Shown here one piece after another: positions 7,217 to 26,471 of a stretch of 64,000 nucleotides of DNA; positions within the stretch are counted from its first letter, which is position 1, and each line of letters starts with the position of its first letter. The stretch covers positions 320,001 to 384,000 of the forward strand of contig CAWFFU010000003.1 of NCBI GenBank assembly GCA_963815215.1, in the 5' to 3' direction. The position numbers and the translations under genes were made by a program. Below the pieces are notes generated by a model. The model was not told the origin of the DNA and ran no database searches. It saw nothing but the letters and a program-made list of their open reading frames with translations. This stretch comes from an uncultured Trueperaceae bacterium. Its GTDB lineage: Bacteria > Deinococcota > Deinococci > Deinococcales > Trueperaceae.

Positions 7217-7332
7217 ACACTCCGCTGTAGACGCCCTGCGGCGTAGTCGATGACGTCGGCGGCGCTCGGCCCTGGAGGGAGCCGAATGTCCCTGCAGCAC
7301 CGACGTATCGTGGGCTCGCACGGGAGGTGCCT

Positions 7333-9876
7333 ATGACACGGCCACGTGGAATCCCTCCGACTTCAGACGCTCAGACTCCTGTGAAGGATGCGGACCAGCT
7401 CGACGACGTGCTGCATTCCCTCGACACCACACTCGATGGCCTGAGCGGGGAAGAGGCGGCCGAGCGCCTGGAGCGCTACGGCCGCAACGCGCTGGCGGAG
7501 CGCACGCGCAACCCGCTGGGCCAGTTCCTGTCCTACCTGTGGGGCCCGATCCCCTGGATGATCGAGGTCGCGGCGATCCTTTCCGTCATCGACCGGCACT
7601 GGGCGGACCTCGTCATCATCGTGACGCTCCTGCTATTCAACGCAGCCGTGGGCTTCTTCCAGGAGTTCCAGGCCACCAACGCGGTGGACGCCTTGAAGAG
7701 GCAGCTCGCGCTGAAGGCCCGGGTGCGCCGAGACGGCAGCTGGCGGCAGATCGATGCTGCCGAGCTCGTACCGGGCGACGTGTTGCGCCTCCGGCTCGGG
7801 GACATCGTGCCCGGGGACGTCAAGCTGGCGGACGGCGACTTCCTCAGCGTCGACCAGTCGGCGTTGACGGGCGAGTCGTTGCCGGTCCAGAAGCGGGCGG
7901 GTGACGCCGCGTACTCGGGGTCCGTCGTGAAGCAGGGGGAGATGGTGGCCGTGGTGACGGCCACCGGGAGCAGCACCTTCTTCGGCAAGACGGCCAGGCT
8001 GGTGGGCGAGGCGAAGTCGGTGTCGCACTTCCAGCGTGCGGTGTTGCGCATCGGTGACTACCTGATCTACCTGAGCCTGGTGCTCGCCGCCGTGCTGGTG
8101 TTGGTGCAGGTCGGTCGTGGGGCGCCGCTGGTGACGCTGGCGCAGTTCACGCTGATCTTGGTGGTGGCGGCGATCCCCGTGGCGATGCCGGCGGTGCTGT
8201 CGGTCACCATGGCGATCGGGGCCAGGACTCTGGCCGGGATGAAGGCCATCGTCACGCGGCTCGAGTCGATCGAAGAGATGGCGGGCATGGACATCCTGTG
8301 CTCGGACAAGACGGGCACCCTGACGCAGAACAGCCTGACCCTGGGCGACCCTGTGCTGTTCGGGGCGGTCGACGCGCAGCAACTCATCCTGGCCGCGGCG
8401 CTGGCCTCGGTAGAGGAGGACCAGGACGCCATCGACCTTGCCGTGCTGGGCGGTTTGGAGGACGCATCCATGGCGGCAACGTTCCGGCGGCGGTCGTTCA
8501 CGCCGTTCGACCCCGTCGGCAAGCGCACGGAAGCGACGATCGACGACCCCGCGGGTGGCTCGTTCCGGGTCAGTAAGGGGGCGCCGCAGGTGATCCTCGA
8601 CCTGTGCCGGACCGCGCCGTCGGTCCGGGCCCGGGCCGAGCAGACGATCGACGACCTGGCCGCGAAGGGCTATCGCACCCTGGGTGTGGCCCGGTCGGAC
8701 GGTGGACAGGGGTGGACGTTCCTGGGGATCCTGCCGCTGTTCGATCCGCCACGGGAGGACTCGCCCGAGACCATCCGACGGGCGCGTGAGCACGGCGTCG
8801 AGGTCAAGATGGTCACCGGCGATAACGTGGCGATCGCACGCGAGATGAGCGGACGGCTCGGCCTGGGGCAGAACATCCGGGCGGTCGAGGACCTGTCCAC
8901 GGACGACGCGGACGACGCTTTCGACGATGGAGCGGTCGAGGACGCCGATGGCTTCGCGCAGGTGTTCCCGGAGCACAAGTACCGCATCGTGAAGCGCCTA
9001 CAGGCCTTGGGTCACATCGTCGGCATGACCGGTGACGGGGTGAACGATGCCCCGGCACTCAAGCAGGCGGACACCGGGGTCGCCGTGAGCGGGGCCACCG
9101 ATGCCGCCCGCGCGGCCTCCGACCTGGTGCTCGTCGCGCCGGGGCTGTCGGTCATCGTGCGCGCCATCGAAGAGGCCCGCAAGATCTTCGAGCGCATGAA
9201 CAGCTATGCCATCTACCGCATCACCGAGACGATCCGCATCATGGTGTTCGTGGTCCTGGCCATGACGGTGTTCAACGTCTATCCGATCACCGCCATCATG
9301 ATCATCCTGCTGGCGTTCTTCAACGACGTGCCCATCATGGCCATCGCCTACGACAACACCTGGCTCGACCCGAAGCCCGTGCGTTGGGACATGCGCCGGA
9401 TCCTTACCGTCTCGACCGTCCTGGGGCTGATCGGTGTGATCGAGACCTTCGGCCTGCTGGTCCTCGGGCGTGTGTGGCTCCAGCTCGACAACGCCCAGAT
9501 CCAGAGCTTCATCTTCCTGAAGCTGGCCGTGGCCGGCCACCTTACGCTGTTCGTGGCGCGCACCCGCAAGCCGTTCCTGAGCCGACCGCACCCGGCGCCG
9601 GTGGTGCTGTGGTCGGCCATCGTGACCAAGATCGCGGCCACGTTGCTGGTGGCCTTCGGGCTGGGCCTGGTCGCGCCCATCTCGTGGCTGGACATCGGCC
9701 TGATCTGGGGGTACTGCCTGGTCTGGATCTTCATCGAGGACTGGGCCAAGCTCGCGACCTACCACCACTTGGATCTCAGCGGACCTCGGCATCGCTCGTT
9801 CCTCGACCGCATCCAGACGCCTCTCCACGCTTACGGCAAGACGCATCGCGGGCGCTCGGCCTCCGGCGGCGACTAG
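7333..9876 (+). CDS. Plasma-membrane-type proton-efflux P-type ATPase (P3A)
   Basis: DQSALTGES, IPVAMP, AIVTRLESIEEMAGMDILCSDKTGTLT, KGAPQ, MVTGD, GDGVNDAPALK, YRI and FFND. GGAGG RBS before ATG 7333. Confidence 0.9.
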   Translation: MTRPRGIPPTSDAQTPVKDADQLDDVLHSLDTTLDGLSGEEAAERLERYGRNALAERTRNPLGQFLSYLWGPIPWMIEVAAILSVIDRHWADLVIIVTLLLFNAAVGFFQEFQATNAVDALKRQLALKARVRRDGSWRQIDAAELVPGDVLRLRLGDIVPGDVKLADGDFLSVDQSALTGESLPVQKRAGDAAYSGSVVKQGEMVAVVTATGSSTFFGKTARLVGEAKSVSHFQRAVLRIGDYLIYLSLVLAAVLVLVQVGRGAPLVTLAQFTLILVVAAIPVAMPAVLSVTMAIGARTLAGMKAIVTRLESIEEMAGMDILCSDKTGTLTQNSLTLGDPVLFGAVDAQQLILAAALASVEEDQDAIDLAVLGGLEDASMAATFRRRSFTPFDPVGKRTEATIDDPAGGSFRVSKGAPQVILDLCRTAPSVRARAEQTIDDLAAKGYRTLGVARSDGGQGWTFLGILPLFDPPREDSPETIRRAREHGVEVKMVTGDNVAIAREMSGRLGLGQNIRAVEDLSTDDADDAFDDGAVEDADGFAQVFPEHKYRIVKRLQALGHIVGMTGDGVNDAPALKQADTGVAVSGATDAARAASDLVLVAPGLSVIVRAIEEARKIFERMNSYAIYRITETIRIMVFVVLAMTVFNVYPITAIMIILLAFFNDVPIMAIAYDNTWLDPKPVRWDMRRILTVSTVLGLIGVIETFGLLVLGRVWLQLDNAQIQSFIFLKLAVAGHLTLFVARTRKPFLSRPHPAPVVLWSAIVTKIAATLLVAFGLGLVAPISWLDIGLIWGYCLVWIFIEDWAKLATYHHLDLSGPRHRSFLDRIQTPLHAYGKTHRGRSASGGD

Positions 9877-10581
9877 CGGTCGGAGAGGCGCGGCCATCGC
9901 GGCCCCCGGCCGGCCAGTGTGCGACCGCGGGAGACCGCGGTGGCCGCGGTGGCCGCGAGTAGTGGGGACGCATGTCGGCACCGCCCTCATCGCGCGCCTG
10001 CGGCGGCGCGACATACGGATCCGGCCTCGGACCGTAGTCAACAAGTGTTATCAAATCTTCTTGGACCTCAATCACCTCCGCGCACGGTCGGACGCTCCAC
10101 GCCGAACCCACCAACGCATGACTTGCGATGTCGTGTGGGACGCGCTGTCAGGCCTATACCGACCCGTCTGTATAGAACATGATCAACGAAACAGACGGAT
10201 CTCCATCCCGGCAGGTGCAGCCGAACAGGCCCCGCGCAGCGAGTGCGTGCGTTGCTGAAGCGCATGGGAGCGACCCTGCTGGCGTGGGCCGGCCGGCGCC
10301 GCATCGAGGGCGCCGAGCGCGTCTTCGGGATCGTGCCGGAGCGCCGGCCCGCGGGTAGCTGCGGGCGCCTGCGCCGGCGCGGGGCCTGCGCCGGCGTTGT
10401 CGTGCGCCGGCTTGGACCCGCCGCCGAGGGAACGAGGGGTCGAGTGGACTTCGGACGAGTGGACCCGCGGCCGAGCGCACGCCTCGGTCCGAGGCGGCAG
10501 CGATCGGCGTTCCTGGACCGTCCGCTGTCTGGTGGGAGCGCGGTGGCAGCCGGACGCTTCGGCGGAGTGCCGGAGTGTTAA

Positions 10582-10609
10582 AAACCTGATAACTCGTCTT
10601 ATCAGGGTT
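10582..10609. other. dif-like tyrosine-recombinase core site (11-6-11 inverted repeat)
   Basis: AAACCTGATAA CTCGTC TTATCAGGGTT. Arms are inverted with 1 mismatch; inner ATAA-N6-TTAT as in Xer/dif sites; lies 71 bp upstream of a tyrosine recombinase. Confidence 0.7.
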
Positions 10610-10680
10610 TGATATCCTGCGTACATGAAGTGCTGCTGTACGCCATCGCGCCGCCCCGGGTCGGCCGCACGGGGTGCGCT

Positions 10681-11670
10681 GTGAGCGACCTCCAACGCTA
10701 CCAGGGCGACGCTCTCAACCGGGCCGAGGGTTGGGCCTCGCTGCCCGCCGACGAGCTCCGGCGCCGGGCCGCCCGCGCGGCCAACGCCCGCGACCTCGAC
10801 GAGTTGTGGGCGCTGACCGAAGCCTACCTGTTCCTGCATGGCTCCAAGGGCTCACGGGCCAGTCGGCACACGCTCCGCACCTATCGGCGCGGCATCGCAG
10901 ACCTTATCGAGGGCTGGCAGGACGAGAACCTGCTGAGGCCGACGCGCGACGCCGGGGTGCTCTACATCCGCCGGCTGGAGTCCACACCCGGCGTGGTGTC
11001 GGGCGAACGGCCGCAGCCGTCGACGCTTCAAGTGAAACTCGCCGCGGCCCGCACGCTCTTCCGAGCGCTGCGGTGGGCCGGCGCCACCGAGGCGCGCCCG
11101 TTCGAGAACGTGCGCGTCGCCAAGGACCCCACACCTCCGTGGGAGAAACGCCGCCCCTACGGCGATCGTGAGGTCGAACGGCTGATCGACCTGGCCGACG
11201 CGGCCGAGCGCGTGGTCGTCCTTCTGGGCGCGCACGCCGGGCTGCGCATCAGCGAGATGACGGCGTTGCGCTGGGGCGATCTCGATCTGGAGCGCGGCGA
11301 GCTGCTCGTCACGGCCGGCAAGGGCGGCAAGAGCGCGCGCGTCCACCTCACACGCCGGCTGCGCGAGGCGCTGGTGTCGCTCCGCCGGGGTGGATTGGCG
11401 GTCCGGCGTCAGCGCGACGCAGGCTACGTGCTGCCCTGGGGCACCGACCATACCCGCAAACACTTCCGCACCCTGTGCCAGCGGGCGGGCGTCGACTATG
11501 CCTCGGCGGGCGTGCACGGCCTGCGCCACGGGGCCGGGACCCGCTACTACCGGCAGACCCACGACCTGGGCCGGGTGGCGGCGCACCTGCGGCACGCCGA
11601 CATCCAGACCACCAGGATCTACGCCAAGATCGACCAGGACGCTATCGGCGAGGATATCGACGACTGGTGA
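10681..11670 (+). CDS. Tyrosine recombinase/integrase, Xer-like (Deinococcus-Thermus type), 329 aa
   Basis: Full catalytic set: R (HAGLRISE), K (GKGGK), HxxR (HGLRH), H (LRHAD), Y (TTRIYA). SAM-like N-domain (SRHTLRTY). No long arm-binding domain. Confidence 0.92.
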   Translation: MSDLQRYQGDALNRAEGWASLPADELRRRAARAANARDLDELWALTEAYLFLHGSKGSRASRHTLRTYRRGIADLIEGWQDENLLRPTRDAGVLYIRRLESTPGVVSGERPQPSTLQVKLAAARTLFRALRWAGATEARPFENVRVAKDPTPPWEKRRPYGDREVERLIDLADAAERVVVLLGAHAGLRISEMTALRWGDLDLERGELLVTAGKGGKSARVHLTRRLREALVSLRRGGLAVRRQRDAGYVLPWGTDHTRKHFRTLCQRAGVDYASAGVHGLRHGAGTRYYRQTHDLGRVAAHLRHADIQTTRIYAKIDQDAIGEDIDDW

Positions 11671-11745
11671 GCGGGAGCGGGATGGTGCGCCGAAGTGCAC
11701 GATCCGAGCCCGCGCTCTTCGTCCGGGGCCCCTCCCGCGCACCGC

Positions 11746-12234
11746 TCAGCCGCCTAGCGCGTACGGTCTCAGTTGGGCACGCATCTCGCCGGGCTTGTGA
11801 TTCTCGGAGTGGATCTGTATGTAGAGGTCGCCGGCCTTGAGCGACTTCACCTGGTCGGCGGTGAGCTGGAAGGTGCCGCGGATGCTGCCTGCGACGGTGC
11901 CGTCGACGTTGAGGCTGAAAAGGATCGGGCCGTTGTCGCTCGGGCCGCCCTGGTGGATGTGCGCTCCGCCGCGTAGCTCGCGGGCAACGGGGCTGGAGAG
12001 GGCCTGGAACGACCCCAGCACGTCGAGTTGGTTGCCGTCCAACACGGCCACCGCGAAGCCGCTGGCCCCTGTGTTCACCGGCGGAACGACGTTCCTGGGG
12101 CTCAGGTTGGCGCTGAAGACTTCGAGAGGGGCCGACTGGGCCGCGGCGGTCGCCACGATGCCCGGTATCGCCACTAGCGCAAGCGCGAAGATCGCGTTGC
12201 GGACCGTGCGCGGAAGCGAACGAGGACGGGTCAT
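11746..12234 (-). CDS. Secreted CHRD-domain protein
   Basis: Signal peptide, then FSANLSPRNVVPPV..ASG, AHIHQG..NGPI and LYIQIHSENHKPGEMRAQL (CHRD signature). GGAGGT RBS. Confidence 0.85.
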   Translation of the reverse strand: MTRPRSLPRTVRNAIFALALVAIPGIVATAAAQSAPLEVFSANLSPRNVVPPVNTGASGFAVAVLDGNQLDVLGSFQALSSPVARELRGGAHIHQGGPSDNGPILFSLNVDGTVAGSIRGTFQLTADQVKSLKAGDLYIQIHSENHKPGEMRAQLRPYALGG

Positions 12235-12436
12235 ATGCCTCACCTCCACGCCCACGGTGGCATGACAGCGCGAGGGAATGCGTCGCACGCGAATGAGGTT
12301 CGCCTGAGGCCTACCTGAGCCTCCGTGCCCGGCCGATTCCCGCGTCGACCCGCTCACCAACGTCGACCCGCGTCGGCCTTCCCGAGGACCGGGCCAACGC
12401 AACGCTCCGAGCTATCGCATGCCGCTCCGCTGCGGC

Positions 12437-13123
12437 CTACTCTCGGCGTGCGGCTCGCGTAGCGGTTGCAGGTCCCTGTTCGATCGGCCCGACCTCGGGT
12501 CTTCTCCGACCGGTCGCACTCTCCCCTTCGTGAGTTGCGCTTCGACTCCACGGTGTGCTTAGGGCCGGAAGCAGCCAGCGATCGAACCCCCACCAACCGG
12601 CCGTCTTCCATGCCAGCACCAGTAGAGTGGCGATCGCCAACAGGATGGGATTCGTGCTCACCGCCCCCGCGAGCAGATAGCTGGTGTTCATGACACTCCC
12701 GAAGAAGGCGGCGATCCCGGTGAAGATGCCCAGGATCAACGCGACGCCCACCAGGAGCTCGCCCCAGGCCACCACGTAGCCCCACGGGACGGGGTAAGGC
12801 AAGACGATGTGCTGCAAGAACCAGCCGTACCAGGCCTGCACTGCGGGATGCGCCCCTCCCGTTTGCGCCAGGGCCCCTTTGACGAAACCCGTGAGCGCGG
12901 TGCCGGCCTGGCCGCCCGTCCAGGCCGCACTGGTGACCTTCTCCCACCCTGCGCTGGCCCACTGCCAGCCTACGTAGAGGCGCAGGATCAGCCAGATCCA
13001 GGCCCAGCGCACGTCCCCGAACAGCGCTCGGGCCAGAGGTGGATCGTGGATGGTCCTTCTCGCGTTTCTGGCGTTCCTGACGTTCTTCCGAGTCGGTTGC
13101 GTGCCATGTGGAAGGGTTGCCAT
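12437..13123 (-). CDS. DoxX/DoxD-family membrane protein (TQO small-subunit-like)
   Basis: WLILRLYVGWQW..AGWEK, WGELLVGVALILG, MN.SYLLAGAVSTNP, AGWWGFDRW. Confidence 0.85.
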   Translation of the reverse strand: MATLPHGTQPTRKNVRNARNARRTIHDPPLARALFGDVRWAWIWLILRLYVGWQWASAGWEKVTSAAWTGGQAGTALTGFVKGALAQTGGAHPAVQAWYGWFLQHIVLPYPVPWGYVVAWGELLVGVALILGIFTGIAAFFGSVMNTSYLLAGAVSTNPILLAIATLLVLAWKTAGWWGFDRWLLPALSTPWSRSATHEGESATGRRRPEVGPIEQGPATATRAARRE

Positions 13124-14688: not shown

Positions 14689-15662
14689 CGGCCTCCCCCT
14701 TCCGCTGGATGGCGGTTCGCCTGAACCCTCGGTCGGATGCTTCGGATCTCCGACGTTGCAGCGACCTCCACGAACTTCCAGGAGATCTCTATGCAGGCCA
14801 CGCGCCCGTCAGCCGCCGGGGCGGCGTTCGGCGCCAGCCAGAAGGCGTCCCCCGTGCCTGACCTGCGATCGCGATATGGGGCACGGGGGCTTACGGCTTC
14901 CGAAACACGCGTATGGTCTGAGTTCGCGACTCCGCCGTATCTTCCCGGGTCCGTCGCTGAACGCCGCGTAAGCGGCTCCCTAGTCCATCCCGAGCCGAGC
15001 CACGACCTCGATCGTGTTGTGGTGCGGTTCCGGCTGAGCACCCAGGGCAGCGTAGGACAGCTCAGACGCAGGGGGCCGCTGCTCGCAAGAGACCGACTCG
15101 CTCCGGTATGCCCGCAGCCTGAGCGGCCCTGCCAGACCGATGAGGACGCTCGGCGGATGGCGCTGTTCCATCTCGGCCAACACGAACGCGCGCTGTCTGG
15201 CTCTCCGTCTCCGTCCCCGATCTTCGGTAGCGGTGATGCCAGTGATGCGTGACTGCAGCGGCCTGAGATTCTGAAGCAATGACGTGATGGGACTCGCTCG
15301 TTTCATGAGACCACCGTCAATCCGGTGCCGGCCAATGTCAGTCGGTACCCGCCAATACTAGGGACCGCAACCGCCAGTGACGAGAGTTATCTGGACCCTG
15401 AGGTCTGGGTTCAATACCCCAGACGGTACGCGAGGGTCCCGCCCCTTGTCGGGCCTGCTGTCCGCTGGCGGCGTTTCGGTCCCCTCACGAAGGAGCTGTA
15501 CTGTGACCCGAGAAGGCCAGCGGGCGCGGCGGGCGCCGCTGGTGCAGGCGCCCCGTACGGCGGTCAACGCTCGGCCTGGGGGCGCCCGGGTTCTTGGCGG
15601 GCGGCGAGAGCGCCTCCGGCACCTCGCGGGGACTTCGCGGCTCACGAGAGGACTTCGGTGCA

Positions 15663-21685: not shown

Positions 21686-24600
21686 TCAGCCTACCGGCGC
21701 AACCTCGTCACGCCGGATGCTGAACACCCGGCTCACACCGTCCTCGGTGGTGACGCCCCAGAGCACGTCGGCGACCTCGAAGGTGGCCTTCTGATGGGTG
21801 ATCAGCACGAACTGTGTGCCGGCGAGAGCGAGCCGTTCCAGGAAAGCGCAGTAGCGCCGGATGTTGGCCTCGTCGAGGGGCGCGTCGACCTCGTCCAGCA
21901 CGGCGATCGGCAGGCCCGATCCGGCGCTGTCGTCGTCCATCAGGGCGAACAGGAAGGCCAGGGCGCCCATGGTGCGCTCCCCCACCGAGAGCAGATGGAG
22001 CGACTGCGTCTGCTTGCCCGGCGGTTGCAGCCGGATGCGTACGCCCACGGGCCGTCCCTCCACGTGCTCGACGTCGATGTCTCCCCGTCCCTCGGCGCCG
22101 AAGAGCTGCTGCACGTGACCCCGGAAACTGGCCCGGAGTCGCTCGAGCGAGGCGTGCAGGCGGGCCGTGGTCTCGCGGTCGATGCGCCCCAGCGTGCCCT
22201 CGAGCTCGGTCGCCGCCAGGGCCGCCTGGACGGCTTCCACCTCGAGCCCCTCTTTGCGTTCACGCGCCTCGTGCAGGTCGCGGGCCGCCCGGTGGTTGAC
22301 GGGACCCAGCGCCTCGAGCTCGGCCTCGACCTCGCGCAGCCGGCTCCGAGCGGCGCGCTCGCTGACATCGAGCGACACGACCCCTTCGGGGAAGCCGCCG
22401 AGCTCTTCGGTGGCGAGCTCCAGCGCCGCCTCGCGTCGAGCGAGCTGCACGTTGCAGCTCTCCAGCTCTTGACCGTGCGACGCCTGCCGCTCGGTGGTCT
22501 CGTTCAGCGCCGTTTCGAGCGCGTCGCTGCGTGCGCGGACCTCGGCCAGCGCCGCCTCGGCCTCCTCCAGGCCCGTCGGCAGCGCCGCCTCGGCCGCGGT
22601 GCGGGTCTGCTCGGCGGCGGCCAGCGCCTCCTCGAGTCCGGCCAGCGTCTGCTCCTGGCGGCCGATCGAGGAGCGCAGCTCGCCGGCCCGTGACCGTTCC
22701 TCCCGGTAGCGCTCCAGCGCCGATCCGTACGAGCGTAAGCGCTCCTCCAGCACCAGGCGCCGCTGGCGCACGTCGGCCAGCTCGCTGCGTCGTTCGGCGT
22801 CGCGGTCCCGCAACGCCTCGACGCGTAGGCCGGCGGCGGCGGCGTCCGCAGCGGCTTCCTCGAGGCGCGCCGGATCGGGTGGGTGGGCAGGTGGCTGAAG
22901 GGCTTCGCGCGCCCGGTCCACCTCGTCGGCGCGCTGCTGCAGGTCCTCGAGCAGGCCCTGCCGGCGCGAGCCGTGCTCGCGCGCCGCGGCCAGCCGTGCG
23001 CGCGCCTCCTCCCACGCCCCCGCCGACGCCGGGCCGCGCTGCTGCAGCCCCCGAACCTGCTGCTGCCGGCGCTCGAGCTCCTCCAGCGCAGCCTCGGCCT
23101 GCCGCCGGATCCGCTCCTCGGCCGCTTCGGCCTCCTCGAGCTCGGCGGCGGCGCCGAGCACGCTCGCTTGCGGGCCGCGCCGGCCGCCGCTCATGGCGCC
23201 GGAAGCTTCCAGGATGTCGCCGTCGAGCGCCACCATGCGGGCGCGCGGGCCGCGCGCCCGGGCCAGCTCGGTAGCCACCTCCATCGTCTTTACCAGCACG
23301 GTGCCGCCGAGCAGCTGCTCGGCGACCTTTCGGTAGGCCGCTCCGACCTCCACCACGTCGACCGCCGCACCGATCACGCCCTGCTGCGCGAGCAGCTCCC
23401 GCGGCGGCCTGCGGCCGTCGTCGCGCAGCAGATCGAGGGGCAGGACCGTGACGAAGCCACCGCGCTCCCGCACCCAGCGCAGCACCTTGCGGCCGGTATC
23501 GGCGTGGTCGACGACCACGTACTCGGCGCGCCGGCCGAGGGCGGCCGCCACCGCCGTACGGTAGTGCTCCGGTACGCCCAGCAGATCGCCAACAGACCCG
23601 ACGACGCCGTCGATGCCCGAGGTCAGGGCGTTGCGCGGACCCTGGGCGTACCCGCGCCGCGCTTCGAAGGCCGCCCGCTGGCGCTGCGCGGCTCGTCCCA
23701 GCGCCTGCCGCTCGGCCTCGAGATGAGCGTGCCGCGCGTGCGCTTCGGCGAGTTGCGTGCGGGCCGCCTCCAGCTCGGCGCCGAGCGCCGCGGATCGTTC
23801 ACGCGCGCCGGCCTCGGCGGCCTCGAGCGCCGCCAGATCTTCGTCCGGCGCCGCCTCCAGCGCCGTCAGCCGTTCCCGGAGCTCGCGGGCCTGGCGCGCG
23901 AGCCCGGCGCGCTGGGTCTCGAAGCTCGTCGCATCGCGCTCGGCCGTCGACTGCGCCTCGCGCAAGCGTTCGAGAGCGCCGCCGGCCTCTTCGAACGCGC
24001 GGCGTGCCGCGGAGACCTCGGCGTCCGCTCCCTGCAGGGCTTCGCTCAGCTCCGCCTCGCGTGCGATCAGGGGTGCTGGGTCGCCCTCGGGAGCGCTCGG
24101 CGGCACCGCCGCTTCCAGCCGGACGGCTTCCTCGCGCGTCGCCTCCAGGGCGTCCCCGGCCGCCTGGCGACGCTCTCGGGCACGATGGGCGCGCTCCTCG
24201 GCGACGCGTAGGTCGCCGCGCCTGAGCTCGGCTTCGGCCAGGGCGCTGCGGTAGGTCTCCTCGCGGGAGTCGCGCGTTCGGCGTGCCCCCTCCAGTTCGG
24301 TACGCAGCTCCTGGAGCCGCTCGCGCCCCTCCTGGATGGCGACGGACAGCTCCGCGCGACGCTTGAGGAGGCCGGCGATCTCCTGCTCGAGAGCGTCGAC
24401 GCGGCGCCTCGAGGCGGTGACCCGCAGTCGCAGAGCTTCGGCCGACAGCGCGGCGTGGCGCTCGGCATCGGCGGCTTCTTCGCCGAGGCGCACGCAGCGC
24501 TCGTCGAGCTCCACGAGCACGTCCTGAAGGCGATCGAGGTGGCCGCGGGCTGTCTCCAGACGGGCCTGCGTCTGCTCCCGCCGGGAGCTCATCCGCCCAA

Positions 24601-25078
24601 CTCCGGCGACCTCAGCGACGTACTGCAACAGCTTCGGGGGGTCCGCCATCAGCACCTGGCTGACCTCGCCCTGGCCGATGAGGGCGACCCCGGACCGACC
24701 CAGGCCACTGCCCGCCAGGGCCTCCTCGAGATCGAGGAAGCGTGCGTTGCGGCCGTTGAGCCTCAGCCGGGTGGTGCCGTCCCGGTCCAGGCTCCGGTAC
24801 ACCTTGAAGGCACGCTCGTCTCCGCGCAACTCGACCTCGACCTCGGCCAGGCTCAGCCCGCGTTTGCCGCTGGCGCCGTGGAAGATCAGATCCGTCTTGT
24901 CGCTGGCGCGGAAATCCCGGGCGCGACCGCCACCCGTGGTCCACTTCAGTGCGTCGATCAGGTTGGACTTGCCCGAGCCGTTCGGCCCGATGATGGCGGT
25001 GATGCCAGGTGCGAACTCGACCACCGTGCGGTTCCCGAAGCTCTTGAAGCCCTGGAGCGACAGGGAGGTGAGGCGCAC
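21686..25078 (-). CDS. smc: Chromosome segregation protein SMC
   Basis: GFKSF, Walker A GPNGSGKSN, Q-loop IGQG, long coiled coils, hinge (GVVGSVGDLL..; GAMSGG), GPVN, LSVGE, Walker B LDEVDAPLD, ITH. Confidence 0.95.
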   Translation of the reverse strand: MRLTSLSLQGFKSFGNRTVVEFAPGITAIIGPNGSGKSNLIDALKWTTGGGRARDFRASDKTDLIFHGASGKRGLSLAEVEVELRGDERAFKVYRSLDRDGTTRLRLNGRNARFLDLEEALAGSGLGRSGVALIGQGEVSQVLMADPPKLLQYVAEVAGVGRMSSRREQTQARLETARGHLDRLQDVLVELDERCVRLGEEAADAERHAALSAEALRLRVTASRRRVDALEQEIAGLLKRRAELSVAIQEGRERLQELRTELEGARRTRDSREETYRSALAEAELRRGDLRVAEERAHRARERRQAAGDALEATREEAVRLEAAVPPSAPEGDPAPLIAREAELSEALQGADAEVSAARRAFEEAGGALERLREAQSTAERDATSFETQRAGLARQARELRERLTALEAAPDEDLAALEAAEAGARERSAALGAELEAARTQLAEAHARHAHLEAERQALGRAAQRQRAAFEARRGYAQGPRNALTSGIDGVVGSVGDLLGVPEHYRTAVAAALGRRAEYVVVDHADTGRKVLRWVRERGGFVTVLPLDLLRDDGRRPPRELLAQQGVIGAAVDVVEVGAAYRKVAEQLLGGTVLVKTMEVATELARARGPRARMVALDGDILEASGAMSGGRRGPQASVLGAAAELEEAEAAEERIRRQAEAALEELERRQQQVRGLQQRGPASAGAWEEARARLAAAREHGSRRQGLLEDLQQRADEVDRAREALQPPAHPPDPARLEEAAADAAAAGLRVEALRDRDAERRSELADVRQRRLVLEERLRSYGSALERYREERSRAGELRSSIGRQEQTLAGLEEALAAAEQTRTAAEAALPTGLEEAEAALAEVRARSDALETALNETTERQASHGQELESCNVQLARREAALELATEELGGFPEGVVSLDVSERAARSRLREVEAELEALGPVNHRAARDLHEARERKEGLEVEAVQAALAATELEGTLGRIDRETTARLHASLERLRASFRGHVQQLFGAEGRGDIDVEHVEGRPVGVRIRLQPPGKQTQSLHLLSVGERTMGALAFLFALMDDDSAGSGLPIAVLDEVDAPLDEANIRRYCAFLERLALAGTQFVLITHQKATFEVADVLWGVTTEDGVSRVFSIRRDEVAPVG

Positions 25079-25103
25079 GCGCCAGTCTACCTTGGCCCGC
25101 GGC

Positions 25104-26471
25104 TCATGCCGCACCCCGGGCGAGCGCCCGGAACAGCAGCGCGCTGGTGTGGATGCCTCTCAGGTAGTCGCGAACCGCGAACTTCTCGTTCGGCGCGTGG
25201 GCACGGTCGTCCTCCAGGCCCAGCCCGACCAGCACCACCTCGCTGCCGAGCAACTCCTGGAAGTCCGCCACCACCGGGATCGTGCCCCCGGTGCGGGCGA
25301 AGACCGGCTCGCGGCCGAAGGAGGCGCGCAACGCCTCGGCGGCGGCGCGCACGCTGGCCGCGTCGATGGGCGTCGCGGCGGGCCGGCCGCCGTGGAGCCG
25401 CTTCACCTCGACCTCGATCCCTTCGGGTGCGAGCGCCTCCAGCGCACGGGCGACCTTCTCGGTGATGTCGTCCGGGTCCTGCCCCGGCACCAGACGGCAG
25501 GACAGCTTGGCGGCGGCGGTAGCCGGGATGACGGTCTTGGCGCCGTCGCCCTGGAACCCGCCCCAGATGCCGTTGCAGTCGAGCGTGGGCCGGGCCCACA
25601 GCCGTTCGATGAGGCTGTAGCCGGCCTCGCCCGGCGTGGCACTCACCCCGGCGTCGGCGCGGAAAGCGGCCTCGTCGAAGGGGGCCGCCGCCATCCGGGC
25701 GCGCTCCTCGTCGCCGAGCGCCGTGACGGCGTCGTAGAAGCCGGGTACGGTGACGCGGCCGTCGCCATCCTTGAGCCCCGCGATCATGGCCGCCAGCGCG
25801 TTGATGGCGTTGGGGACGCCACCGCCGTAGGCGCCCGAGTGAAGGTCGCGGCCGGCGCCACGAACGTGGACCTCGAGGTAGGCGAGCCCCTTGAGGCCGT
25901 AGGTCAGGGTAGGGGTGTCGGGAGCCATCATGGCTCCGTCGGAGATGACCACCACGTCGGCCGCCAGCGCGGCGGCGTTGCGCTCGAGGAAGGGACGCAG
26001 GTTGGGGCTGCCGATCTCCTCCTCGCCTTCGACGACGAACAGCACGTTGAGGGGCAGGGCGCCGTCCACCTGCGCCAGCGCCTCGACGCCCTTGATGTGG
26101 GCGTACACCTGCCCCTTGTCGTCGCTCGCGCCGCGGGCGAGGATGTCGCCGTCGACAACGGTGGCCTCGAACGGCGGCGTGTTCCAGAGCTCGAGTGGCT
26201 CGGCGGGCTGCACGTCGTAGTGACCGTAGACGAGCACCGTCGGCGCCCCCGGGACTTCGGGCGAGCGTCCCACCACGACGCCGTGGCCGTCGGTAGGATG
26301 CACCTCCGCCTCGAAGCCGGCCCGGCGCAGCGCGTCGGCGACGAAGGCGGCGGCCTGCGCCACGTCCTCGGTGCGTTCCGGGTCGGTGGACACCGAGGGG
26401 ATGTGCAGGAACGCGAAGAGCTCGTCGAGGTGACGCTCGCGGTTGCTTTCCAGGTAGTCGGTCAGCGCCAT
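25104..26471 (-). CDS. M20-family dipeptidase/deacylase
   Basis: YGHYDVQP, ARGASDDKGQ, EGEEEIGS, DLHSG, GGTIP, AHAPNE. Confidence 0.9.
   Translation of the reverse strand: MALTDYLESNRERHLDELFAFLHIPSVSTDPERTEDVAQAAAFVADALRRAGFEAEVHPTDGHGVVVGRSPEVPGAPTVLVYGHYDVQPAEPLELWNTPPFEATVVDGDILARGASDDKGQVYAHIKGVEALAQVDGALPLNVLFVVEGEEEIGSPNLRPFLERNAAALAADVVVISDGAMMAPDTPTLTYGLKGLAYLEVHVRGAGRDLHSGAYGGGVPNAINALAAMIAGLKDGDGRVTVPGFYDAVTALGDEERARMAAAPFDEAAFRADAGVSATPGEAGYSLIERLWARPTLDCNGIWGGFQGDGAKTVIPATAAAKLSCRLVPGQDPDDITEKVARALEALAPEGIEVEVKRLHGGRPAATPIDAASVRAAAEALRASFGREPVFARTGGTIPVVADFQELLGSEVVLVGLGLEDDRAHAPNEKFAVRDYLRGIHTSALLFRALARGAA

Follow-up and report, generated by a model that had tools for sequence, protein, structure and literature searches.

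In E. coli, B. subtilis and most other bacteria, two recombinases, XerC and XerD, act on dif, a 28-bp site of 11-6-11 geometry with an ATAA-N6-TTAT core that is kept as a single copy at the terminus and works with the gamma domain of FtsK. In the available text of a 2022 study, skewed, G-rich octamers are described as converging on dif, KOPS in E. coli and SRS in B. subtilis (PMC9764985). The xerC and xerD genes lie apart from dif itself. According to the accessible part of the survey by Kono (2011, PMC3025954), xerC genes are often near it.

Other organisms make do with a single enzyme. To go by the available portions of the XerS report, every streptococcus and lactococcus analysed has difSL directly upstream of xerS, and the authors speculated on a promoter role for the site and observed that a site beside its own recombinase gene is typical of mobile modules (PMC1914069). 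XerS, and XerH of Helicobacter and Campylobacter, are described as acting alone on asymmetric sites (PMC5357621, PMC1914069, as far as the accessible text of each goes). In archaea, XerA is likewise a single Xer protein working on a dif-like site.

Deinococcus and its relatives, whose genomes are polyploid and multi-replicon, serve as models of extreme recombinational DNA repair, and crossovers in genomes of this type should often yield chromosome dimers. Within the open-access literature and bioRxiv, neither a dif site nor a dedicated single Xer recombinase is described for Deinococcus, Thermus or Truepera, a report in a subscription journal being possible. The accessible part of Table 1 of the 2011 dif survey does not have Deinococcus-Thermus among its phyla (PMC3025954), and the 2022 FtsK study, in its accessible text, had to work with dif and XerCD borrowed from E. 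coli (PMC9764985). Here we describe a locus in an uncultured Trueperaceae bacterium that is, in our judgement, probably a single-recombinase module for dimer resolution resembling difSL-xerS, in which the candidate site abuts a predicted leaderless promoter.

The dif-like site and the adjacent recombinase

The module occupies the following positions of the window, by which we mean the whole 64,000-nucleotide stretch of DNA that was analysed.

10582..10609, no strand assigned: dif-like site, 28 bp, 11-6-11; unique, conserved, at the skew maximum and the motif polarity switch
10610..10618, + strand: extended -10 element, TG-A-TATCCT, abutting the right arm
10625..10684, + strand: short open reading frame of 19 codons, with its ATG 7 nt after the -10 and its TGA overlapping the recombinase GTG (GTGA)
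10681..11670, + strand: Xer-like tyrosine recombinase P0001, 329 aa, GTG start, 71 bp after the right arm

The site is made up of a left arm, AAACCTGATAA (10582-10592), a centre, CTCGTC (10593-10598), and a right arm, TTATCAGGGTT (10599-10609). One mismatch interrupts the inverted repeat of the arms, the 6-bp centre is asymmetric, and the conserved block reaches left beyond the 28-mer to about 10576 (TGTTAAAAA). An earlier note on this DNA had reported the sequence of the site, its coordinates, its 71-bp distance from the gene and the TG-n-TATCCT element, and all of these were confirmed. In surroundings of 68-70% GC, no other 30-nt stretch of the 6.8-kb interval examined is as AT-rich as the site (67% AT). 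The genome-wide count that the same note had proposed returned a single copy: with up to three mismatches allowed, the 28-mer has one match in the window and no further match in the entire 3,316,786-bp assembly, which comprises 14 contigs and is 97% complete, so that a second site or a partner recombinase could lie in unassembled DNA. The ATAA-N6-TTAT pattern also has a single occurrence in the 3.32-Mb assembly, as the core of this 28-mer. By estimate, an 8-base AT core is expected about once by chance in 3.3 Mb of 70% GC DNA, and the significance of the site therefore comes from its conservation (33 of 33 orthologous loci) and its position rather than from the palindrome alone. Since the genome holds one site, the recombinase could recombine sister copies only.

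P0001 carries the Pfam domains PF00589 and PF02899 and has an N-terminal three-helix extension (residues ~9-53), a SAM-like core-binding domain and a catalytic domain. The catalytic residues, said in the earlier note to be all present, do form a complete R-K-H-R-H-Y set (R189, K214, H279, R282, H305 and Y314), invariant in alignments of 17 and of 52 sequences. The structure model (pLDDT 88) has its top fold matches in XerA, IntI4 and XerH, and the nearest solved relatives are Xer-type: XerA (5hxy and 4a8e), IntI4, XerH and XerD. Among solved structures, XerA is the best match in both sequence and fold (4a8e, E=2.6e-12; 5hxy, E=6.6e-12; Foldseek rank 1), and XerH is a weak one (5jjv, E=1.1e-7, residues 174-327 only). 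By the curated models, the protein falls outside XerC, XerD, XerS and XerA, with 74.4 bits against the XerC model TIGR02224 (cut-off 335.15), 53.9 bits against the XerD model TIGR02225 (cut-off 329.6), 48.1 bits against the XerS model NF003462 (cut-off 267, C-terminal half only) and 77.4 bits against the XerA model NF040815 (cut-off 220), the last being its best NCBIfam match. No XerH family is among its NCBIfam matches.

Nowhere in this genome does a protein match XerC or XerD above the cut-off; its other full-length tyrosine recombinases, two in number, are integrases of phage type with PF14659, and XerD matches above the cut-off number 0 in 151 Deinococcota genomes. The recombinase had been called a lone one, which holds for this genome but not for the genus, as a second paralogue of about 50% identity is found in 7 of 9 congeners and also in genome G017; upstream of the congener paralogue there is only a half-site, CATTTGATAA. 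The paralogue did not turn up in G000 and G003, each 97% complete, nor in G004 (81%). G020, which belongs to another genus and is complete in one contig, has a single P0001-family match and no XerD-like match at E<=1e-25. A complementary distribution of the P0001 family and XerD-like genes was considered and rejected: across 61 Trueperaceae genomes (XerD-like at E<=1e-25, P0001 family at E<=1e-60), 12 have both, 11 only the XerD-like gene, 25 only the P0001 family and 13 neither, which is no clean anti-correlation. Among genomes with orthologues of at least 63% identity, an XerD-like gene occurs in 1 of 14, all 14 being close kin. One of the Trueperaceae genomes counted as having both genes, G191, is flagged as unpublished.

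The predicted promoter and translation start

Upstream of the recombinase -10 there is no -35 hexamer, and the site fills that space. A generic sigma-70 scan found no -35/-10 pair at this promoter, a result that fits an extended -10 promoter but adds no independent support for one. With a strict script pattern, a TAnnnT-type hexamer 9-10 nt after TTATC, followed 5-7 nt on by ATG, was found in 23 of 36 loci. The ATG at 10625 is the predicted leaderless start, and it opens the short reading frame listed above. The 20 public runs listed for this locus included no RNA data set. Short frames of 18-51 codons, unconserved in sequence and all ending in an ATGA or GTGA overlap, precede the recombinase at 9 loci by script and, by eye, at this window's locus and one other (L021); in other genera the equivalent ATG is the recombinase's own start (14 loci). 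The public gene call begins the recombinase at GTG 10630 and gives it 346 aa. Most of the orthologues listed, whose identity goes down to about 73%, have 328-335 aa and a start position matching 10681.

Conservation among relatives

Orthologues of P0001 are present in 9 of 9 congeners at 82-98% identity. In all 33 distinct orthologous loci (Trueperaceae, identity at least 63%), GATAA-N6-TTATC lies within 200 bp upstream of the gene, an adjacency of the XerS/difSL type that here amounts to 71 bp. More distant homologues have 6-bp-spaced inverted repeats of their own upstream; the search for an upstream motif in homologues across the lineage, which the earlier note had suggested, thus found this spacing kept. 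The outer arms differ in most other genera, the left reading AAAAA[C/G] and the right being variable or ACCTA-like. The description of the site as near-symmetric is accurate for this genome and fails for most other genera, where inversion is confined to the inner 7-8 bp of the arms. The argument built on it, that symmetric arms imply one type of protomer, is a weak one, because most relatives have asymmetric outer arms. Such asymmetry would be compatible with two distinct binding proteins as well. Many relatives have broken stem positions (TTATCCG opposite CTGATAA), and the 6-nt centre is the best-conserved part.

Other Trueperaceae, a second family (f3) and a large genus, presumably Deinococcus, have related modules with diverged arms at the terminus. 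In the last of these, the right arm (TTATCAT) itself resembles a -10, 5-8 nt before ATG. The idea of one module per replicon in this presumed Deinococcus genus was rejected: genome G033 has homologues on four contigs, and a dif-like site adjoins the main-chromosome copy alone, none being seen upstream of the copies on its contigs C1, C3 and C5 or of three other paralogues. Recombinase homologues of 41-47% identity are also carried by 62 plasmid records, all of them from Deinococcus.

Position at the terminus

On the 1.21-Mb contig C3, cumulative GC skew reaches its maximum at 330-342 kb, and the site is at C3:330,582; the maximum is broad, and the curve stays on a plateau between about 340 and 490 kb. 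Skewed k-mers were trained only on positions 1-250 kb and 500 kb to the end of C3, and the 250-500 kb region was held out. The top trained 7-mer was GGGGGAG (152:42) and the top 8-mer GGGGGAGA (44:2). Within the held-out region, GGGGGAG flips strand between 327,935 (+) and 334,693 (-), a 6.8-kb interval that contains the site and no other candidate site, and GGGGGAGA flips between 327,935 and 351,246. The 7-mers that bracket the switch are, in window positions, as follows.

7935..7941, + strand: last + GGGGGAG (KOPS-like) before the site, left bracket of the polarity switch
14693..14699, - strand: first - GGGGGAG after the site, right bracket of the polarity switch

The 8-mer stands at 62:3, leading to lagging, against 67% for 28 permutations of the same composition pooled, and genome-wide it occurs 139 times against 49 for its reverse. 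Within the 64-kb window, GGGGGAG is not over-represented relative to shuffles (11 found, 19 expected). An attempt to derive the motif from the remaining contigs, each oriented by its overall GC skew, was set aside; it gave only generic G-rich, codon-like 7-mers, probably because several of those contigs span skew switches. In the complete genome G020, GGGGGAGA runs 42+/10- up to 1,308,731 and then 13+/32- to dnaA (2,790,041), the last three + copies being 1.1-1.8 kb away from the site core (1,309,824-1,309,839). The terminus test that had been proposed, by GC skew and skewed-oligomer polarity, thus places the site at the skew maximum and the polarity switch, and it was replicated in G020.

Of 17 finished chromosomes from three families, 16 have the homologue or its site at a distance from dnaA of 45-52% of the replicon. 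The exception is CP070651.1, a finished MAG chromosome in which a 63%-identical orthologue and its site are only 25% of the replicon from dnaA. Because xerC is itself often near dif, the terminal location of the gene is not by itself proof that the palindrome is the site. An FtsK gamma domain (PF09397) is encoded at C12:116,584 (86.9 bits, cut-off 30.6).

Discussion

The locus combines features of the Xer/dif class, namely the catalytic set and fold, a site of about 28 bp in single copy, a terminus location, and polar motifs together with FtsK gamma. With XerS/difSL it shares one recombinase, a site directly upstream of the recombinase's own gene, the terminus, FtsK and the absence of canonical XerCD, insofar as the accessible report describes that system (PMC1914069). 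It departs from XerS/difSL in its 28-bp site with a 6-bp centre and ATAA-N6-TTAT, where the same text calls difSL an 'atypical 31-bp' site (PMC1914069), and also in its phylum, its predicted leaderless promoter and a protein that is not XerS by NF003462. Like archaeal XerA, it appears to pair a single Xer with a dif-like site; unlike XerA, it belongs to a bacterial host with FtsK, carries the extra N-terminal three-helix extension and has its site adjoining the gene. With XerH/difH it has in common a single recombinase, a dif-like site with two non-identical arms and the structural neighbour 5jjv, whereas sequence similarity to XerH is weak and confined to the C-terminal half; the available part of the source on XerH contains no statement that difH adjoins xerH. 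The geometry, core, single terminal copy and FtsK gamma are those of XerC/XerD-dif, and GGGGGAG(A) converges on the site as KOPS and SRS do on dif, but there is one enzyme instead of two and the site is fused to the recombinase promoter.

From this arrangement we infer recombination at the site, a dependence on FtsK and autoregulation, and the general course of events can be outlined. Two protomers of one recombinase would bind the two arms, with the inner CTGATAA/TTATCAG repeats as their shared recognition core. Sister sites would synapse at the closing septum, where FtsK would be steered by the polarised GGGGGAG(A) copies, whose convergence on the site is observed and which FtsK may recognise. 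Strand exchange would then take place on either side of the asymmetric CTCGTC, which would set the alignment of the sites, and would resolve the chromosome dimer to monomers. The site occupies the place of a -35 against the extended -10 of what would be a leaderless transcript, and recombinase bound there probably acts as a repressor of its own promoter. In this genus, translation would enter the recombinase gene by way of the short coupled upstream frame.

We consider it unlikely that the palindrome is an operator only, through which the recombinase or some other regulator controls transcription, with dimer resolution, if any, left to another site or mechanism. An operator would suit a site that abuts a -10 and fills the -35 position, the -10-like right arm of the presumed Deinococcus modules, 5-8 nt before ATG, and the half-site of the congener paralogue, which looks regulatory. 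An operator, however, would have no cause to coincide with the polarity switch or to be antipodal to dnaA in 16 of 17 chromosomes; in its 11-6-11 geometry, its ATAA-N6-TTAT core and its conserved asymmetric centre the element has the features of a recombination site, and the switch interval offers no other candidate site and the genome no other Xer-type enzyme. Quite improbable, too, is a dif site served by two recombinases in the manner of XerC/XerD, the second being the ~50% paralogue of the congeners or a gene in the unassembled 3%. The paralogue's presence in 7 of 9 congeners and G017, an assembly that is 97% complete, and outer arms that differ and are each conserved would all fit such a pair; yet the paralogue was not found in G000, G003 or G004, the complete G020 has a single P0001-family match and no XerD-like one, and XerS and XerH manage alone on asymmetric sites (PMC5357621, PMC1914069, in their accessible parts).

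A mobile or plasmid-derived element, whether an island, an exploiter of Xer sites or a system for plasmid multimer resolution, with the palindrome as its att or res core, might be suggested by a site adjoining its recombinase gene, as is typical of mobile modules (PMC1914069, available portion), by the 62 Deinococcus plasmid records with homologues and by the DNA immediately left of the site, which varies within the genus (a P-type ATPase is present or absent). We regard it as very unlikely, given that no attL/attR repeats and no second att-like copy were found in the genome and no tRNA within 30 kb of the site, that orthologues occur in 9 of 9 congeners with the terminus position kept across families, and that the order MgtE, site and gene, CHRD/DoxX is conserved in congeners. 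The neighbours, described earlier as accessory genes, proved to be housekeeping ones instead (AspRS, HisRS, MgtE, P-type ATPase, transketolase, 6PGD, BirA and SMC). Nor does the protein look like a phage or island integrase, its N-terminal domain being PF02899 and not PF14659, with no tRNA, site repeat or mobile cargo; an island integrase with att repeats, far from the skew inflection, had been named in the earlier note as the outcome that would count against a chromosomal role, and it was not seen. Least probable of all, to the point of being hardly tenable, is an RNA hairpin, for instance an intrinsic terminator for read-through from upstream genes. A terminator scan does flag both strands (an 8-bp stem with 3 GC pairs, followed by TTTTT on the - strand), and the RNA fold has -13.6 kcal/mol (z = -3.5). 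Against this, the T-run is antisense to the gene, with none on the + strand in relatives, the stem is broken in many relatives with the 6-nt 'loop' best conserved, transcription is predicted to start only downstream of the element, and an Rfam scan of 9000-12600 gave 0 matches.

The dimer-resolution module preferred here offers a concrete site, an enzyme and a candidate FtsK-orienting motif, which make dimer resolution in this lineage directly testable and give a natural terminus marker for these genomes. We tentatively put forward the possibility that much of Deinococcota resolves chromosome dimers with an unrecognised single Xer-type recombinase, whose dif lies within its own leaderless promoter so that occupancy both sets up recombination and shuts the gene off. 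If this is true, the missing Deinococcus dif would be GTTGATAA-[T/G]GCATG-TTATCATC, beside the gene at the terminus of the main chromosome, and FtsK would be steered by a lineage-specific polar motif, GGGGGAGA in Trueperaceae. XerS, XerH and XerA would then be joined by a fourth independent single-recombinase Xer solution, in this phylum. A dif fused with the promoter of its recombinase would clearly exemplify the coupling of site occupancy to gene expression.

Site and gene

The element and the gene beside it are confirmed, in sequence and coordinates, as the earlier note described them; they are set out here with a short reading frame that lies between them.

10582-10609, dif-like site, AAACCTGATAA-CTCGTC-TTATCAGGGTT (sequence)
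10610-10618, extended -10 element TG-A-TATCCT, directly after the site (sequence)
10625-10684, short ORF, 19 codons, GTGA overlap with the recombinase start
10681-11670 (+), gene of the recombinase P0001, GTG start, 329 codons (open frame)

P0001 combines a Pfam Phage_integrase domain (2.9e-23) with a Xer-type N-terminal SAM_1 domain, and its catalytic residues R189, K214, H279, R282, H305 and Y314 do not vary in alignments of 17 and 52 members of the family. In an AlphaFold2 model made from 52 sequences (pLDDT 88.3, pTM 0.72), three additional helices (residues 9-53) stand ahead of a standard two-domain tyrosine recombinase fold. The best Foldseek matches are XerA 5hxy, IntI4 2a3v, XerA 4a8e, Tn1549 Int, lambda Int and XerH 5jjv, with which a sequence search of solved structures agrees, and public annotations of family members read 'integrase/recombinase XerC', 'tyrosine-type recombinase/integrase' or 'site-specific integrase'. 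The genome-wide count proposed in the earlier note gives a single copy of the 28-mer at up to 3 mismatches, in the window and in the whole G000 assembly alike (14 contigs, 3,316,786 bp, about 70% GC, 97% completeness; its contig C3 supplies the window, C3:320001-384000), where the ATAA-N6-TTAT inner core also occurs exactly once.

The surroundings of the recombinase place the locus in the core chromosome, not in an island. To the left of the site lie AspRS, HisRS, a YfbR-like HD protein, MgtE and a P-type ATPase, and to the right of the recombinase CHRD, DoxX, a sugar transporter, transketolase, a HAD hydrolase, 6PGD, BirA and SMC; there is no tRNA within 30 kb, and the order from MgtE through the site and gene to CHRD/DoxX is kept in congeners. 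What varies within the genus is the P-type ATPase, present or absent, and some 0.7-1.2 kb left of the site (window 7327-10581; loci L015-L023 and L044-L050). About 700 bp there (9877-10581) hold no recognised gene, and a 112-aa frame at 10243-10581 has no Pfam match. The SMC condensin gene (21686-25114, -) is 11 kb from the site, within the terminus region.

Conservation of the site

The recombinase family is carried by Trueperaceae, in the Deinococcota. A search of 41 related genomes found orthologues in all nine same-genus genomes (82-98% identity) and in several other Trueperaceae genera (51-76%). When upstream DNA was compared, as the earlier note had suggested, GATAA-N6-TTATC was present within 200 bp of the gene in 33 of 33 distinct loci with at least 63% identity, in 35 of 49 at 50% or more and in 35 of 69 at 30% or more. 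These counts exclude duplicates between searches, loci whose upstream DNA was shorter than 60 bp and loci with no more than 200 matched residues, a filter that removed L027 and L083, though both carry the site; L091 and L099 are fragments.

The consensus of the orthologous sites, [T/A]GT[A/G]AAAA[A/G][C/T]CTGATAA-CT[C/A]G[T/C]C-TTATC[A/C]G, is as conserved in its 6-bp centre as in its arms. Reliable inversion is confined to the 7-8 bp of each arm nearest the centre; further out, the left arm is an A-tract that the right arm does not match. Thus the near-symmetric arms on which the earlier note laid weight are real in this genome but are a trait of G000, not of the element. More distant homologues have sites of their own, of other sequence and with the 6-bp spacing kept.

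Sites of distant homologues
OY764543.1: ATTTCCAATAA-GGTACA-TTATTGGAAAT, 14 bp from the start
OZ252252.1: ACTTACCATAA-GCTGTG-TTATGGTAAGT
G015: GTGGAAACATAA-TGTGTA-TTATGATTCCAC
G118: ACCCACCTAA-TCAGCC-TTAGGTGGGG
G176: ACCCACCCAA-GTATCC-TTGGGTGGGT
G190: TCTCTTTTCA-AATCGG-TGAAAAGAAA

Homologues in family f3 are preceded by 13-6-13 repeats, read by eye, and no repeat of the required form was found upstream of L085 (within 220 bp), G182, G208 and several paralogues.

Two variants were also seen. In low-GC Trueperaceae (L030, L071, L075, L077 and L079; 55-59% identity) a site of the [A/G]GATAAG-N5-TTATC type, for example AAGATAAGTATCCTTATC, stands about 600 bp upstream of the gene in four loci and about 1.9 kb upstream in L071, and a small HTH-like ORF between the two suggests a site-HTH-recombinase operon. 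A long subfamily of 453-468 aa (P0113-P0121; L072, L074, L129 in G118 and L133 in G176) joins an N-terminal sigma-70 region-4 HTH (PF04545) to the recombinase; the long forms of G118 and G176 adjoin ACCCACC[T/C]AA-N6-TT[A/G]GGTGGG[G/T] and lie near the dnaA antipode (50.0% of 3,260,398 bp in G118, 45.1% in G176).

Position at the terminus

The earlier note raised the possibility that the site marks the terminus, and both GC skew and the polarity of skewed motifs support it. Cumulative GC skew along the 1.21-Mb contig C3 climbs as far as 330-342 kb, where it peaks, and then runs level until about 490 kb before dropping; the site is at 330,582. To keep the choice of motif independent of the answer, k-mers were ranked by strand bias on 1-250 kb and from 500 kb to the end of C3, with 250-500 kb held out. 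Ranked first in these training regions were GGGGGAG among 7-mers (152 leading : 42 lagging) and GGGGGAGA among 8-mers (44:2). Across the held-out region the signs of the 8-mer run +++++++---+--------, with the switch lying between 327,935 and 351,246; the 7-mer switches between 327,935 (+) and 334,693 (-), or 7935 and 14693 in the window. This 6.8-kb interval contains the site and no other 11-N(6-8)-11 inverted repeat with at most one mismatch. Split at the site, GGGGGAGA divides 62:3, against 67% for 28 same-composition permutations pooled, and it occurs 139 times genome-wide versus 49 for its reversed sequence. Since polarity is mostly '-' across the skew plateau, it is the motif switch, not the plateau edge, that marks the site. 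The plateau itself (C3 about 340-490 kb; window 20000-64000 and beyond), some 150 kb of flat skew right of the site where GGGGGAG polarity has already flipped, possibly reflects a wide zone of termination, a recent rearrangement or the acquisition of DNA.

Independent replication of the switch comes from G020, a single-contig genome of another Trueperaceae genus whose orthologue is 70% identical.

1,308,776-1,309,759 (-), G020 recombinase gene
1,309,824-1,309,839, G020 site core
2,790,041, G020 dnaA

Among the 100 matches listed of 105 in total, GGGGGAGA is 42 + / 10 - up to 1,308,731, then 13 + / 32 - to dnaA, and + again beyond it. The last three + copies are at 1,308,045, 1,308,711 and 1,308,731, and the next copy is - at 1,328,834; the maximum of the running sum is tied again at 1,358,466 and 1,384,382. 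The reversed control gives 45 matches versus 105.

Finished chromosomes: how far the homologue or its site lies from dnaA, in per cent of the replicon
Trueperaceae: G118 (3,260,398 bp), 50.0%; G208:C7, 49.7%; G190, 47.6%; G182, 47.3%; OZ252252.1, 50.3%; OY764543.1, 49.9%; OZ243927.1, 45.1%; G020, about 51% (replicon size rounded); CP070651.1, 25%
Family f3: G026, about 50% (rounded size); G030, about 52% (rounded size)
Genus g17: G033, 50.9%; G064, 50.3%; G079, 50.4%; G093, 49.5%; G102, 50.1%; G048, 47.4%

The distance is 45-52% in 16 of 17 chromosomes, which include kin and hence are not independent; the antipodal pattern nevertheless covers three families with differing site sequences. Five additional g17 genomes were chosen for few contigs and a site on contig C1, before their dnaA positions were known. 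In the exception, CP070651.1 (L069 / G193), a 63%-identity orthologue with ACGATAA-GTGGCC-TTATCAA lies at 25% and a second homologue (52% identity) at 49%, possibly reflecting a rearrangement, misassembly of the MAG or a swap of roles.

Other recombinases in the genome and the lineage

P0001 falls far short of the curated models for XerA (77 bits against a cut-off of 220), XerC (74/335), XerD (54/330) and XerS (48/267). The G000 assembly contains no XerC or XerD over cut-off, and its five PF00589 matches are P0001, two open frames of 409-415 aa on C10 and C11 that carry the phage-integrase SAM_3 domain, one long divergent frame and one fragment. An FtsK with a gamma domain is encoded at C12:116,584 (86.9 bits). 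None of the 151 Deinococcota genomes sampled has an XerD over cut-off, and many of those in families f2 and f4 have XerD-like matches of 150-215 bits. Across 61 Trueperaceae genomes, including the unpublished G191, 12 carry both an XerD-like and a P0001-family gene, 11 the XerD-like gene alone, 25 the P0001-family gene alone and 13 neither, a distribution without clean complementarity.

The description of P0001 as a lone recombinase therefore holds for the G000 assembly, within the limit of its 97% completeness, but not for the genus: seven of nine congeners and G017 (L105-L112: G001, G002, G005-G009, G017) have a paralogue with about 50% identity to P0001, which was not found in G000, G003 and G004. 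Upstream of it is only a conserved half-site, CATTTGATAA, with a GCTACACT -10 and then a leaderless-type ATG. This paralogue could be a partner, a regulator-like relative or a second system.

A predicted leaderless promoter

In relatives TTATC is followed, at a distance of 9-10 nt, by a TAnnnT-type hexamer that often has a TG before it; an ATG comes 5-7 nt further on. A strict script pattern for hexamer and ATG matched 23 of 36 loci; four of the other 13 show the pattern on the + strand, and in nine the hexamer begins with C/A or ends in A/G (for example CAATCA, CAAGAC or TAAGCA), with an ATG 5-9 nt later. Given this spacing, the recombinase transcript is probably leaderless; leaderless mRNAs are common in Deinococcus. 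In 14 loci from other genera the recombinase itself begins at the predicted leaderless ATG. Within this genus, and in G019, that ATG opens an ORF of 18-51 codons, not conserved in sequence, whose TGA overlaps the recombinase start (ATGA/GTGA), an arrangement that suggests translational coupling. Because the site fills the -35 region of the predicted promoter, bound recombinase should occlude its own promoter. The same suggestion has been made for difSL (PMC1914069).

A candidate site in the presumed Deinococcus genus

Genus g17 of family f2, presumably Deinococcus in view of its many multi-replicon genomes of 3-6 Mb and of hits that bear the Deinococcus name, has a homologue 38-43% identical to P0001. 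In 8 of 8 loci (L126-L128, L135-L139) it is preceded by CCGTTGATAA-[T/G]GCATG-TTATCATCGG, with an ATG 5-8 nt after the repeat and a right arm, TTATCAT, that resembles a -10 itself. The pattern GTTGATAA-N6-TTATCATC (at most one mismatch) occurs in 37 of 81 g17 genomes, mostly once each, and its reversed control in 0 of 81. In all six chromosomes checked, the distance between the site and dnaA is 47-51% of the chromosome, and the site has the core TGATAA-N6-TTATCA in common with the Trueperaceae site. We consider the repeat a candidate for the Deinococcus dif.

Plasmid records with P0001 homologues number 62, all from Deinococcus. One, L140 (NC_000958.1, D. radiodurans R1 plasmid MP1, 124398-125432), is a 'site-specific integrase' of 44% identity, which, judged by its position, is probably the Dr_B0104 that the mBio paper lists; upstream are a degenerate TGATAA-TTCAAG-TTATAC core and a TATCCT -10, adjoining an ISDra7 insertion.

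Full-text searches of the open literature found neither a dif site nor a dedicated Xer reported in Deinococcus, Thermus or Truepera. In Kono 2011 (PMC3025954), a passage of Table 1 names no Deinococcus-Thermus, and 'Deinococcus' and 'Thermus' do not occur in the main text. A section of the 2022 D. radiodurans FtsK paper (PMC9764985) lists six putative recombinases, and E. coli dif/XerCD were used there; according to a passage in a 2026 paper, neither polarised KOPS nor a canonical dif could be found in D. radiodurans.

Overall reading

In its geometry the site is like canonical dif, and in having one enzyme, a site immediately upstream, a position at the terminus and FtsK, the locus resembles the difSL-xerS module. 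The uniqueness and conservation of the site, its position at the terminus and polarity switch, the absence of canonical XerCD and the presence of FtsK gamma are all observed. Overall, we believe that the locus is probably a dif/Xer module at the terminus in which a single recombinase resolves dimers, its site fused to the leaderless promoter of its gene. FtsK, guided by GGGGGAGA, would be led to the site, where the recombinase would bind and exchange strands around CTCGTC; the same protein would repress its own promoter, and the short upstream ORF may couple translation into the recombinase.
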